From NCBI RefSeq assembly GCF_024502345.1, contig NZ_JALDNN010000002.1: a DNA stretch of 64,000 nucleotides. One strand, given 5' to 3'. Made by a program: the position numbers. This document shows positions 42,101-45,100 of the stretch, one piece after another (within the stretch, counting starts at the first letter, position 1; every line of letters begins with the position of its first letter). Source of the stretch: Escherichia coli. Its GTDB lineage: Bacteria; Pseudomonadota; Gammaproteobacteria; Enterobacterales; Enterobacteriaceae.

Positions 42101-45100
42101 GTGTTATCTGTGGATTGTGCAGCTCAGCGGGTCGCTGGTCGTATGGCGGAGTGTCCCCCGTAACCGGCCGCGTGCGGCCGCTAACGCGCAGTACGGCGCC
42201 GCGTCCCGCAGGCGGGCCGCCGTTCCCGCGCGCAGCACTGCGCACCCCCGTGGGGGACGTGCGGCAGCTGCGTGGCGGTGACCGGCACGAACCGCATGTT
42301 AGGTCGAGTGACGGCTTCACAAATAGCTTCAGCGTCTGCAGCATCATGCTTATTGGTTTTAACATAGGGTTTGACGAACTGAGGGGCCATCAGTTTGACA
42401 TTATGGCCCATCGATATCAGTTTATTGGCCCAGAAATGAGCAGATGCACAGGCCTCCATGCCGATCAAACAGGGTGGGATGTTGGCAAAAAAGGAGGCCA
42501 TTTGTGCCCGTCTGAGTTGTTTGTTGAACAACCGTTTTCCGTGCTCGTCAACCCCATGGATCTGGAAAACGTTTTTTGCCAAATCGATTCCAATAGTTTT
42601 AACGTTCATGATAGCAGCGCTCCGTTCAATGAGTGACGATTTATCGTCCCACTGTGGCACAAGAGATGGGAGGCGACCATTCCATTAACAAAGCCGGTAT
42701 TTAGCCGTTGATGCGTCAATACCGTAGGTAAATTTAGCAACTAGAAACCATACCATTATTGGCGGCAAAGTAATTGCAAATAAAAATGCTAAGCCTCTTT
42801 CTCTATCGTCCATTTCAGCGCTCCTTTTTTGGTTCCCAGACTTTATAGCCGTTACGTTCAACCTCTGCTTTTGCCGCTTTGGTTTTACCCGGTTCTGCTA
42901 TCGAACGTAGGAGGATCAGCGTTTCAATAGCGAGTGATTCATGCAACATCATCTGTCCTGCCGGTGGGAATGTTACGCCAGATAGCGTTTCGGTTATTGC
43001 CTTCAGCTCATCGCGCAGTGAGCCAAAATCCGCATCTGAAGCACGGTCAAAAAGGTAATCCAGTTTGCGATTTACGTCGCTCAGCTGGTTGGTAACTATT
43101 TTCAACCCGGACTCCAGATCACCTGGGCCAGCTTCAAGGCAGCGCCGCAGATACTCTGACCGATTACCACCTGAAACCAGGTCTATATAGGCCAAAAGTT
43201 CATCTGATACTTTTGCGGTTATTGTTGGCATTCAGTCCTCACTTTGTGCATTTTTTAAACGAAAAAAGGGTGTCTAATACGGTGAAATCATAGTATTACC
43301 AAAGTAATAAATAAAAAATTCTTTAAATCAGTAAGTTAGATTAGATTTGTAATACCTGGGTAATACCGCAGTATGGCTAAATTTGGTTTTTTTCTTTTAA
43401 ATCAGTGAGATAGCGTGATTTATCACGCTGCGTTAGGTGTATAGCAGGTTAAGGGATAAAAAATCATCTTTTTTTGGTAGGGCGATCTCCGTAGGTTAAG
43501 GGTCATTTGGCTAAAAAGCGTCCTATTCTTTGATGGTCATGCTTGCATGACCATCTGAGCAACCAAAAACTACAGATAAACTACAGATAAACTACAAAAA
43601 ACGTTTTGCCTTAGTGTTGGGAGACTACAAATAGACTACAATAAAACTACAAATAAACTACAAATAAACTACAAAAAACGTGACAGACTACAAATAGACT
43701 ACAATAAAACTACAGATAAACTACAAAACTCGATTGACCCCTTCTTACGAGTGTTGTAGAGTCATTTTCATACAACGGAGGGGGTTATGAATAAACCAGC
43801 AGATCTGAAACCCCGCAACTTATCGGCTGCTGTCAGATTGCGCCTAAATGAAATCGAGAACTGGCTGGACAGAGGGCTAACGCGGCATGAAATTGCTGAA
43901 ATCCTCGACAGCGAATACAGCTTTTCGGTAACAGCCAAAGGGCTTGAGATGGCACTGTATAGAACGCGGCAAAACCGAAAAAATGTATTGCACAATACAC
44001 ATGATAAGAGTAGCGCGAAGGGTGCAGCGGAAAGTGTATTGCACAATACACAACCGTCTGAGCCTGAAGCGCAGGAAAGTAAAAAAGCAGAGAGTCCCGG
44101 CATTATTGATAAAGAATTCTTCAAGAAAATCGGTGAGAATTTCGACCCTAAGAAGTTCAACAAAAAATTCTGAGGTGATTTATGAAAGTAGCGGTAATTA
44201 ATTACAGTGGCAGTGTTCGTAAAACCTTAATTTCATCTTACCTGTTAGCCCCGCGCCTGACTGGTGCAAAGTTCTATGCGGTAGAGACTATCAACCAGTC
44301 TGCTTCCGATCTGGGTATTGAAAATGTGACCAGTTTTAAAGGTGACGACTTCTCACGTTTGATTGAGGGGTAATGACTCCAACTTACTGGTAGTGTTTTA
44401 TGTTCAGATAATGTCCAATGACTTTGTCATGCAGTTCTCCCTTCAGGCGTGATTCATAAAGCGGCCAGTCATCCGTCATCCATACCACGACCTCAAAGGC
44501 CGACAGCAGGCCCGGAAGACGCTCCAGCGTGGCCAACGTGCGTTCACCGAATACGTGCGCCACAACCGTCCTCCGTATCCTGTCATACGCGTAAAACAAC
44601 CAGCGCTGGCGTGATTTAGCGCCGACGTAACCCCACTGTTCGTCTATTTCCGCGCAAACAATGACGTCACTGCCCGGTTGTATGCGTGAGTTTACCGACT
44701 GCGGCCTGAGAGGCGGTGTAAGTGAACTGTAGCTGCCATGTTTTACGGCAGTGAGAGCAGAGATAGCGCTGATGTCCGGCAGTACTTTTACCGTTACGCA
44801 CCACGCCTTCAGTAGCTGAGCAGGAGGGACAAGTGATGGAGATGGAAGCCACTGGAGCACCTCAAAACCACCATCATACACTAAATCAGCAAGTTGGTAG
44901 CATTACCCAGAACTGGACAGAATAGGCTGTATGTCTAACTTCTGGCCACAGATATAATCGAGCCAGCAGTGCTCGCCGCAGCCGAGCGACAGGGCGAAGC
45001 CCCGAGTGAGCGAGGAAGCACCATGGAACAGTACTCATAAATTCTGCATACGCTCAATGCCTGCAAAATCACCTCCCATAGGGGTTATCCACTTATCCAC

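Follow-up and report, generated by a model that had tools for sequence, protein, structure and literature searches.

What kind of element is formed by three clusters of 11-bp direct repeats, a 128-aa ORF with a helix-turn-helix (HTH)-like domain and the beginning of an NTPase gene cut by IS1, all lying together in a 64-kb stretch of an Escherichia coli contig (the window)? A preliminary description of this DNA had likened the layout to the ParR/parC or StbA/stbDR centromere-adaptor modules, and held that the proteins were not recognisably those. Every element that it listed was confirmed at its stated place, with corrections of detail given below. We find that the region 42700–44368 is the already described IncN stbA/stbB stability and transfer-control module in a remnant form, adjoining the transfer origin (oriT). 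The comparison with a StbA-type adaptor and an IS1-cut ParA-like NTPase had therefore named the right kind of system. Nothing in it is new in kind: it is a standard IncN oriT-stb region, real but ordinary, since the same form is known from more than 1000 sequenced plasmids.

The fragment is 1.67 kb long and contains, in this order, a truncated traJ, traK, oriT, the repeat array, stbA and a truncated stbB (Table 1). Its left edge adjoins an IS110-family piece and its right edge a defective IS1; the carrier is a mosaic multi-resistance plasmid which is not IncN and has neither a relaxase nor a coupling protein.

Table 1 Features of the IncN-derived region and its surroundings (positions in the window)
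Feature	Position	Strand	Remark
Full IS1 copy	40468-41236		Reference for aligning the defective IS1
IncN replication iterons, 37-bp repeats	41582-42080		Beside the repA remnant
5' end of IncN traJ, type IV coupling protein	42700-42814	-	Truncated at ~42700 by the IS110-family fragment
traK, 138-aa oriT accessory protein	42815-43231	-	Divergent from stbA
IncN oriT core	43412-43441	+	Inverted repeat AGCGTGAT-TT-ATCACGCT (43412-43429), then GCGTTAGGTGT/ATAGC
Candidate oriT auxiliary sites, AGGTTAAGGG x2	43446-43455, 43493-43502	+	Repeat finder
Perfect inverted repeat GATGGTCATGC-TT-GCATGACCATC	43532-43555	+	Repeat finder
stbS-like array, cluster 1	43567-43599	+	Three 11-bp repeats
stbS-like array, cluster 2	43622-43676	+	Five 11-bp repeats
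stbS-like array, cluster 3	43685-43728	+	Four 11-bp repeats; end 5 bp before the -35 hexamer
Putative stbA promoter, TTGACC-17-TAGAGT	43734-43762	+	Consensus match alone
stbA, 128 aa	43787-44173	+	HTH domain at ~residues 10-74, disordered linker, short C-terminal helices
Truncated stbB pseudogene	44182-44368	+	62 codons + one base; NF041292 and alignments to intact StbB
Defective IS1, 539 bp	44369-44907	-	Both terminal repeats intact; internal deletions of 115 and 114 bp

Both proteins proved recognisable in profile searches. The 128-aa protein matches the StbA equivalog model StbA_2 (NCBIfam NF041290) with 205.5 bits against a cutoff of 100 bits, its residues 7–128 aligning with profile positions 1–123. 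At least 80% of 43200–44380 recurs, annotated stbA, in 1118 PLSDB plasmids, and each of the two exact protein sequences is already in public databases as StbA or "plasmid stabilization protein", with no fewer than 1000 contigs apiece. The preliminary description had allowed for a transcription factor unrelated to partition; the protein found is StbA. Its N-terminal domain is a homologue of the solved DNA-binding domain of R388 StbA (residues 1–75), which the profile of IncN-type StbA proteins matches over 58 residues (PDB 7PC1, E=7.9e-4), and the family's conserved P-R...A...EI...G...LYR.R core allows R388 StbA to be aligned as well. This link is visible with the family profile only and not in a single-sequence PDB search, where a match to bS20 was discarded as spurious because it lies in the low-complexity linker. 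The adaptor is all-helical with a tri-helical HTH. Predicted structure confidence is high at residues 11–60 (pLDDT >90) and low at 75–103 (<50), giving a two-domain layout in which a structured DNA-binding N-terminus is followed by a poorly structured and poorly conserved C-terminal part; the linker differs in length among homologues.

General domain collections were less informative. Pfam-A returned nothing useful for StbA, just a sub-threshold Clr5 match, and no match for the StbB stub, TraK, intact StbB or StbC; a PHROGs search gave no match. An exhaustive search of representatives, 1.84 billion in all, gave 33 clusters with E up to 1e-3, so that the StbA family is a small one; no new functional link came from it.

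The ORF downstream of stbA matches the StbB profile NF041292 over positions 1–61 of 233 (E=5e-22, 78.4 bits), which for a stub falls below the 200-bit cutoff of a full-length match. A homologue free of insertion sequences is available in the intact 238-aa StbB of IncN plasmids, which belongs to the same family and is identical to the stub at 61 of 62 residues; the ParA-like nature of StbB is indicated by a weak match to the ParA structure 3CWQ (E=0.018). The gene is indeed cut by IS1, as first described, but the 63 codons counted then are not all native: the ORF spans 44182–44373, and its last codon and stop are provided by the IS1 terminal repeat GGTAATGACTCC, which begins at 44369. The IS1 itself turned out to be a defective copy, with two internal deletions read from its alignment to the full copy in the window.

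The SGSVRKT sequence, taken earlier for a degenerate Walker A motif, is present in the stub, but it is not a trait of the family. It results from a Gly13-to-Arg substitution in a P-loop that reads NYSGS[VI]GKT, with the glycine invariant, in all four intact StbB proteins compared, down to 51% identity. The same IS1 junction, 187 nt into stbB, occurs in two further plasmids (L001 and L006), and the glycine is kept in a plasmid that shares this junction. Among the copies compared, the arginine was seen solely in truncated ones. IS1 destroyed stbB at nt 187, and the stub would have acquired the substitution later. Other plasmids carry a deeper stbB truncation at nt 75, with an IS903-like end. We rejected it as an independent event: it carries the same arginine allele and is probably derived from the IS1-truncated lineage.

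On the other side of stbA, homology to the IncN plasmid pEC656_KPC begins at about 42700, where its T4SS DNA-binding (coupling) protein gene starts, and traK, the nick region and stbA are near-identical in the two. The traK gene is near-identical to the gene at the same position in IncN plasmids, and its product shows a weak N-terminal match to RHH/MazE-like models (E=3e-4). In pCU1, TraK has a role in transfer (PMC2943615). Intact IncN plasmids have the arrangement mobF-T4CP-traK / oriT and repeats / stbA-stbB-stbC. The IncN stbABC/oriT region of R46/pKM101, pCU1 and modern IncN1 plasmids is the same element, with the same gene order as in the window: traK on the minus strand, then the nick region, the repeats, stbA on the plus strand and the stbB stub; stbA is on the leading side of oriT and is transcribed away from the relaxosome genes. 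The window differs from these plasmids in the cut of stbB, in the absence of stbC, a consequence of the IS1 truncation, and in the absence of the remaining leading region.

The oriT core forms a hairpin (−7 kcal/mol, z=−3.8) followed by a nick that we predict between 43440 and 43441, its exact position being presumably that of the R388 nick site. Conservation of the core extends to four IncN-type and two small mobilisable plasmids: GCTGCGTTAGGTGTAT is invariant in five of five aligned oriT regions, and the core of the sixth (L008) is closely related. The layout agrees with the hairpin/TAG/pentanucleotide/nic order of the pCU1 oriT (PMC2943615), and the nick core of R388 is GGT(G)CGTATTGTCTATAGCC (PMC4256276). 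With its hairpin and then a conserved nick region, both ahead of the leading region, the sequence has the features of an IncN oriT of the MOBF type. The auxiliary repeats further along (43446–43555), in which GGTTAAGG and TCATGCTTGCATGA are unchanged across all five aligned regions, may be sites for TraK or a host factor. No Rfam family was found in 41000–46000.

Between oriT and stbA lie the repeats that had first drawn attention to the locus. The motif ARACTACARWW has 12 matches in the whole window, all on the plus strand between 43567 and 43728, compared with a chance expectation of 0.43 and a maximum of 2 in 100 dinucleotide-preserving shuffles. The repeat period is 11 (Tandem Repeats Finder), and spacing is exactly 11 bp within each set. 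The direct repeats in three clusters upstream of the 128-aa ORF are therefore where they had been placed, but they number three, five and four rather than four to five per cluster. They end just short of the only sigma-70-like site in 43200–44400, and stbA is preceded by GGAGGGGG in addition to this promoter-like sequence.

The word iteron, applied to them earlier, does not fit. Clustered direct repeats beside a small DNA-binding protein do have the general look of a cryptic replicon, with the 128-aa protein as initiator or copy-number regulator. We give this reading next to no credence: the protein is StbA and not a Rep protein, no rep gene adjoins the repeats, the true IncN replication iterons are the 37-bp repeats listed in Table 1, and repA is about 13 kb away from stbA in intact IncN plasmids. 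Equally far-fetched, in our view, is the idea that unrecognised proteins make this a type II (ParR/parC) or type III (TubR/tubC) partition locus of a new kind. Those systems share with Stb the phased direct repeats, a small adaptor that coats them, an NTPase gene and operon autoregulation, a functional analogy drawn by the authors of the R388 work. They differ in adaptor fold and partner NTPase, and R388 segregates without any plasmid NTPase. The adaptor here has the tri-helical HTH of StbA proteins and not the ribbon-helix-helix of ParR, and its NTPase is the ParA-like StbB, neither actin-like nor tubulin-like.

The closest experimentally studied counterpart is the StbA/stbS/StbB system of R388 (IncW). 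There, 9-bp repeats with 2-bp spacers, hence an 11-bp period, lie in front of stbA in sets adjoining oriT; StbA and stbS are enough for stability and StbB is needed for conjugation only; and the repeats are needed for stability but not for conjugation (PMC3098194; bioRxiv 10.1101/2022.04.29.490116). StbA bound to the repeats inhibits conjugation (PMC3098194). The two loci share an N-terminal HTH domain homologous between their StbA proteins, a two-domain StbA with an unstructured C-terminal part, sets of direct repeats adjoining oriT and divergent from the relaxosome genes, and a ParA-like StbB next in line. They differ in sequence, the DNA-binding domains being about 24–30% identical and the C-terminal parts unrelated. 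They also differ in repeat core (ACTACA in the window, TTGCATCAT in R388) and in the number of sets (three against two sets of five). A further likeness is to TraK of RP4 (IncP), a small protein that binds on the leading side close to oriT; PMC3098194 cites it as homologous to StbA and places its binding between nic and traK.

We consider it very probable that the locus is an IncN backbone fragment in which StbA and the ACTACA repeats act as an R388-like stbS complex for segregation and for damping transfer, with StbB lost. The 12 repeats would be the IncN counterpart of the centromere-like stbS. StbA would bind them cooperatively through its N-terminal HTH domain, the 11-bp spacing placing successive molecules on one face of the helix, and the nucleoprotein complex would stand just in front of the stbA promoter, with the nick site about 130 bp away. 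Following the R388 precedent, from which we infer binding, repression, segregation and transfer inhibition for the IncN version, this complex would repress stbA transcription, position plasmid copies on the nucleoid so that they are inherited without a plasmid-encoded NTPase, and keep oriT in a state that disfavours transfer. StbB, the ParA-like ATPase, would normally lift the transfer block. With stbB destroyed by IS1, only the half formed by StbA and the repeats could still work, and oriT would still be usable if a co-resident IncN plasmid provides TraI, TraJ and StbB.

Some details may depart from R388. The array lies upstream of the −35 hexamer and not across the promoter, so the geometry of repression may differ. 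R388 StbA controls four further promoters. We looked for a comparable regulon and found none: the ACTACA motif has no second array in the 64-kb window, nor in the initial 50 kb of pEC656_KPC (58 kb), a stretch in which the repeats occur upstream of stbA only. The stb genes of IncN R46/pKM101 are reported, at second hand in PMC3098194, to be needed for stability in recA+ hosts only, a recA dependence unlike R388 that would also be compatible with some role besides active partition. Our literature search found no binding, stability or transfer experiment on the IncN StbA-repeat pair.

Comparison among IncN plasmids supports the pairing of StbA with its repeats. In pNDM1_LL34 (IncN), StbB is 96% and the C-terminal tail of StbA about 85% identical to the proteins here, whereas the StbA DNA-binding domain is just ~37% identical; its repeats are a different 11-bp unit, AGTACATCAAA. 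A more diverged IncN-like plasmid with a similar StbA DNA-binding domain keeps ACTACA repeats in a 3+3+3 arrangement. In the plasmids aligned, the repeat motif thus covaries with the DNA-binding domain while StbB and the StbA tail are conserved. Repeat number is itself variable, with 12 (3+5+4) in the window compared to 15 (4+7+4) in pEC656_KPC.

This covariation bears on another reading, in which the main role of the 11-bp repeats is architectural, within the IncN oriT, where they serve relaxosome assembly or bending rather than acting as a centromere, and StbA is chiefly a regulator of conjugation. An IncN-like nick region and, after it, ACTACA arrays (2+2+4 and 3+3) occur in two small plasmids (8.2 kb and 3.8 kb), with no stbA annotated in the fetched flanks and no StbA-like protein among the ORFs of pA172 (L003), which suggests that the repeats travel with oriT. 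The proximity of the array to the predicted nick and the inhibition of conjugation by R388 StbA on its repeats fit this reading as well, and a 1992 description of the pCU1 oriT region reportedly includes 11-bp direct repeats. We nonetheless judge it rather unlikely. The motif follows the StbA DNA-binding domain while relaxase and nick regions stay conserved, the repeats of R388 are required for stability and not for conjugation, and IncN stb mutants are reported unstable in the work cited at second hand above. The roles of centromere and oriT are, moreover, compatible with each other.

Does the remnant still do anything for the plasmid that carries it? It may be inert, hitchhiking between insertion sequences on successful resistance plasmids with no contribution to maintenance or transfer. 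Besides the insertion sequences at its edges and a dead stbB with its P-loop substitution, the nearby IncN repA is likewise truncated by IS1 (its remnant, with the iterons, is at 41237–42080) and the adjoining IncFIA repE is interrupted after 44 nt. The host plasmid also encodes, separately from Stb, its own ParA-type partition ATPase (34285–34911), so the Stb remnant may be dispensable. Recent common descent would also fit the roughly 98% identity of the copies in other plasmids. On the other hand, stbA, its ribosome-binding site, its promoter and the entire array are intact, and R388 StbA and stbS function without StbB. The exact StbA protein recurs on 1000 contigs or more, and frameshifted versions of it are rare singletons. 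The oriT, repeats and stbA are also kept with varied left boundaries (IS26, IS903B, TnAs1 or an IS110 fragment) and with the deeper truncation of stbB. We accordingly hold an inert fragment to be improbable. The broad occurrence of the truncated form could nevertheless reflect clonal spread rather than selection.

A bolder proposal, which we advance only tentatively and think doubtful, is that IncR, IncF and other mosaic resistance plasmids have taken over StbA and its repeats, without StbB, as a compact NTPase-free cassette for segregation and transfer gating, which is kept by selection. If this were true, an intact stbA across many independent rearrangements of the flanks would be a natural replicate of the R388 result with StbA and stbS, and the two classes of repeat and DNA-binding domain among IncN plasmids would define partition-incompatibility types.

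The identification resolves the repeat-flanked "mystery" module of a resistance plasmid as IncN oriT-stb and adds little that is new. It flags this mosaic plasmid as bearing an IncN transfer origin usable by a co-resident IncN plasmid, and as having a possibly active StbA/centromere pair besides its ParA system. Annotators who meet this 63-aa "hypothetical protein", which hundreds of Klebsiella plasmids carry, can name it an IS1-truncated stbB pseudogene. The covariation of motif and domain, the variation in repeat number and the small oriT-only plasmids that keep the repeats are useful for the study of site recognition by StbA.

Finally, a palindrome, GTATTG-CA-CAATAC, occurs inside stbA and solely at its two coding positions, the disordered linker containing two VLHNT units. 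The LHN motif which it encodes reappears in distant homologues with different codons, favouring an explanation at the protein level over a DNA site.

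Profile searches identify both proteins of the region. The 128-aa protein matches the NCBIfam equivalog model NF041290 'plasmid stabilization protein StbA' at 205.5 bits (cutoff 100), and the short ORF downstream covers positions 1-61 of NF041292, the StbB model of 233 positions (E=5e-22). The feature is the stb region already described for IncN plasmids, shortened by an IS1 insertion. The preliminary description rightly sensed a StbA/stbDR-like module, and the repeats, the 128-aa ORF and the IS1-cut second ORF that it reported are all in the sequence; its remark that the proteins are 'not recognisably those' does not survive these scores. 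The protein family assignments rule out both replication iterons and a new ParR/TubR-type locus.

The region is already known in essentially identical form from more than 1000 sequenced plasmids. The DNA at 43200-44380 is found in 1118 PLSDB plasmids (at least 98% identity, at least 80% of the length), most of them from Klebsiella, and their records name the gene stbA. The exact StbA sequence and the exact stbB-stub protein are each present on at least 1000 public contigs, and the 63-aa stub product, 100% identical in 862 plasmids, is called 'hypothetical protein' in most among the matches listed.

Features of the stb region and its surroundings (window positions)
Feature	Position	Strand	Remark
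Tyrosine recombinase	32765-33556		
ParA-type partition ATPase	34285-34911	-	
umuDC	36775-38855	-	
Group II intron reverse transcriptase	38880-40364		
Complete IS1	40468-41236		
Second IncN backbone remnant	41237-42285		repA 3' end, cut by the complete IS1
37-bp IncN replication iterons	41582-42080		13.5 copies, after the repA 3' end
IS110-family transposase gene fragment	42279-42696		417 bp; parts the two IncN remnants, marks the traJ truncation point
traK	42815-43231	-	upstream of the IncN transfer origin
IncN oriT inverted repeat	43412-43429		hairpin-forming; then GCGTTAGGTGT|ATAGC
Repeat cluster 1	43567-43599	+	three 11-bp units
Repeat cluster 2	43622-43676	+	five 11-bp units
Repeat cluster 3	43685-43728	+	four 11-bp units
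stbA	43787-44173	+	128 codons; strong ribosome-binding site ahead
stbB stub	44182-44373	+	63 codons; last codon and stop inside the IS1 terminal repeat from 44369
Defective IS1	44369-44907		539-bp derivative, both ends intact; internal deletions of 115 and 114 bp
IncFIA (F ori2-type) origin	44908-45447		DnaA boxes and TGTGACAAA iterons; right of the defective IS1
repE	starts 45386		interrupted after 44 nt by the IS3-family element
IS3-family transposase	45448-46260	-	

By alignment to pEC656_KPC (NZ_CP018977.1), an intact conjugative IncN plasmid of 58 kb, the IncN-derived DNA begins near 42700, within the coupling-protein gene traJ, and extends to 44368. The order in pEC656_KPC is MobF relaxase, coupling protein, small accessory gene and then divergent stbA-stbB-stbC. 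The oriT of the window agrees with the published pCU1 layout of hairpin/TAG/pentanucleotide/nic (PMC2943615), and its core resembles that of the IncW plasmid R388 (PMC4256276). Beyond the core, AGGTTAAGGG occurs twice, together with an inverted repeat of 11 bp without mismatches; related origins conserve all of these.

The array upstream of stbA (43567-43728) consists of 12 head-to-tail 11-bp units of the pattern ARACTACARWW, all on the + strand and spaced by exactly 11 bp inside clusters. Three clusters had indeed been described, with 4-5 copies each; the actual numbers are 3, 5 and 4. The pattern has no match outside the array in a scan of the 64-kb window, and dinucleotide-preserving shuffles of the window give a mean of 0.43 matches and a maximum of 2. 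The final repeat stops 5 bp ahead of TTGACC-17-TAGAGT at 43734-43762, the sole sigma-70-like site in 43200-44400. Array size differs by whole 11-bp units among otherwise near-identical plasmids: 3+5+4 in the window, and 3+4+4, 4+7+4 and 2+4+4+4 elsewhere (fetched segments L001, L002, L006 and L010 compared).

A similar arrangement has been studied in R388, where two sets of five 9-bp repeats with 2-bp spacers, an 11-bp period, lie upstream of stbA beside oriT. There StbA binds the repeats via an N-terminal HTH domain and represses its own and other promoters; plasmid stability requires StbA together with the repeats; and the ParA-like ATPase StbB is not needed for stability, but conjugation depends on it in the presence of StbA (PMC3098194; bioRxiv 10.1101/2022.04.29.490116). 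A profile of 14 StbA family sequences matches 7PC1 (R388 StbA residues 1-75) with E=7.9e-4 over 58 residues, and R388 StbA aligns with distant family members, drawn from an exhaustive search, through a common P-R...A...EI...G...LYR.R core. IncN StbA is too diverged to match the R388 crystal chain in a single-sequence search. Since Foldseek gave no significant match, the structural link deserves a moderate rather than a strong rating. While the StbA motif also marks four other promoters in R388, the first 50 kb of pEC656_KPC contain no ACTACA array besides the one upstream of stbA, and a wider regulon may be absent for IncN StbA.

Plasmid comparison helps to assign the ACTACA repeats to StbA. 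In the IncN plasmid pNDM1_LL34 (NZ_CP025965.2), StbB shares 96% identity with its pEC656_KPC counterpart; StbA (1822-2241) resembles that of the window at about 85% identity in the C-terminal tail and at only about 37% in the DNA-binding domain, and the upstream arrays (1650-1810) use another 11-bp unit, AGTACATCAAA/ATTACATCA, which is nearer to the R388 motif. The more diverged, IncN-like pEco-36682cz has a StbA 57% identical overall with a similar DNA-binding domain, and keeps ACTACA units (3+3+3). Therefore, at the sequence level, the repeat motif changes with the StbA DNA-binding domain; it follows neither the remainder of the operon nor the nick region, and the latter is conserved across the compared oriT regions. 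IncN plasmids fall into two specificity classes, and in the stb of pNDM1_LL34 the DNA-binding domain and its site seem to have been exchanged together within an otherwise conserved operon.

Alternatively, the repeats may chiefly serve the transfer origin. Two small plasmids, pA172 (NC_010259.1, 8.2 kb; 1500-1760) and NZ_CP024541.1 (3.8 kb; 1500-1740), have ACTACA arrays, 2+2+4 and 3+3 respectively, after an IncN-like nick region; in the fetched flanks of both, the annotation shows no stbA (ORFs were listed for pA172 only). They may be oriT-only hitchhikers depending on a helper's StbA and StbB. A role of the repeats in transfer is compatible with a StbA-repeat complex, because in R388 repeat-bound StbA also acts as the conjugation switch.

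The preliminary description had the second ORF cut by IS1 after 63 codons; IS1 does cut it, and the native part is 62 codons plus one base. Its IS-free homologue, the intact IncN StbB, has 238 aa and a weak ParA-family resemblance (3CWQ, E=0.018). The P-loop NYSGS[VI]GKT is invariant in four of four intact StbBs, with identity down to 51%. In the stub, codon 13 (44218-44220) has changed from GGT to CGT, placing Arg for Gly before the P-loop Lys. In plasmid pb1-2L-2 (2261-2449), IS1 enters stbB at exactly the same point, after 187 nt, yet Gly is retained, so the change postdates gene breakage. Accordingly, the Arg of the reported 'degenerate Walker A' is real, but it reflects pseudogene decay and no family feature. 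The IS1 itself cannot encode transposase because of its two internal deletions.

From the identities and homologies of these parts, we infer how the fragment might work. With the promoter at 43734-43762 driving its expression, StbA would bind the 11-bp-phased repeats cooperatively through its HTH domain, on one helix face, and form a nucleoprotein complex beside oriT. If it acts as in R388, the complex may autoregulate stbA, tether the plasmid copies to the nucleoid or spread them over it with no plasmid-encoded NTPase, and damp transfer from the adjoining origin. With stbB destroyed, the StbA-dependent half alone could operate; oriT could still serve if an IncN helper brings relaxase, coupling protein and StbB. 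Nonetheless, as cited in PMC3098194, IncN stb mutants were reported to be unstable in recA+ hosts only, and the stability role of IncN StbA may therefore not be identical to that in R388.

Another possibility is that the fragment is inert cargo carried between insertion sequences, as its degraded neighbours would suggest. About 4-9 kb upstream lie UmuDC, a group II intron and a ParA-type ATPase; with this ATPase, the plasmid possesses a conventional partition system apart from stb, which again fits inert cargo. On the other hand, stbA, promoter and array are intact across plasmids with differing left boundaries, which argues against inert cargo. In the L010 lineage, a deeper truncation of stbB, at nt 75 by an IS903-like end, also spares stbA, although this second truncation is probably not independent because the Arg allele is common to both.

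A 51-bp tandem unit encoding VLHNT plus 12 residues lies in the StbA linker (43984-44052), with two copies in the window and one to four among homologues (StbA lengths 111, 128, 143-145 and 150 aa). The LHN motif reappears in disordered linkers of StbA relatives with only 27-40% identity, and the DNA coding for it forms the palindrome GTATTG-CA-CAATAC, present only at these two positions in the window. In the second IncN remnant, the replication iterons, which lack an intact initiator, might titrate the RepA of a co-resident IncN plasmid. The stbB-stub/IS1/repE junction is shared with pR47-54 at 99.6% identity, and there repE is intact.
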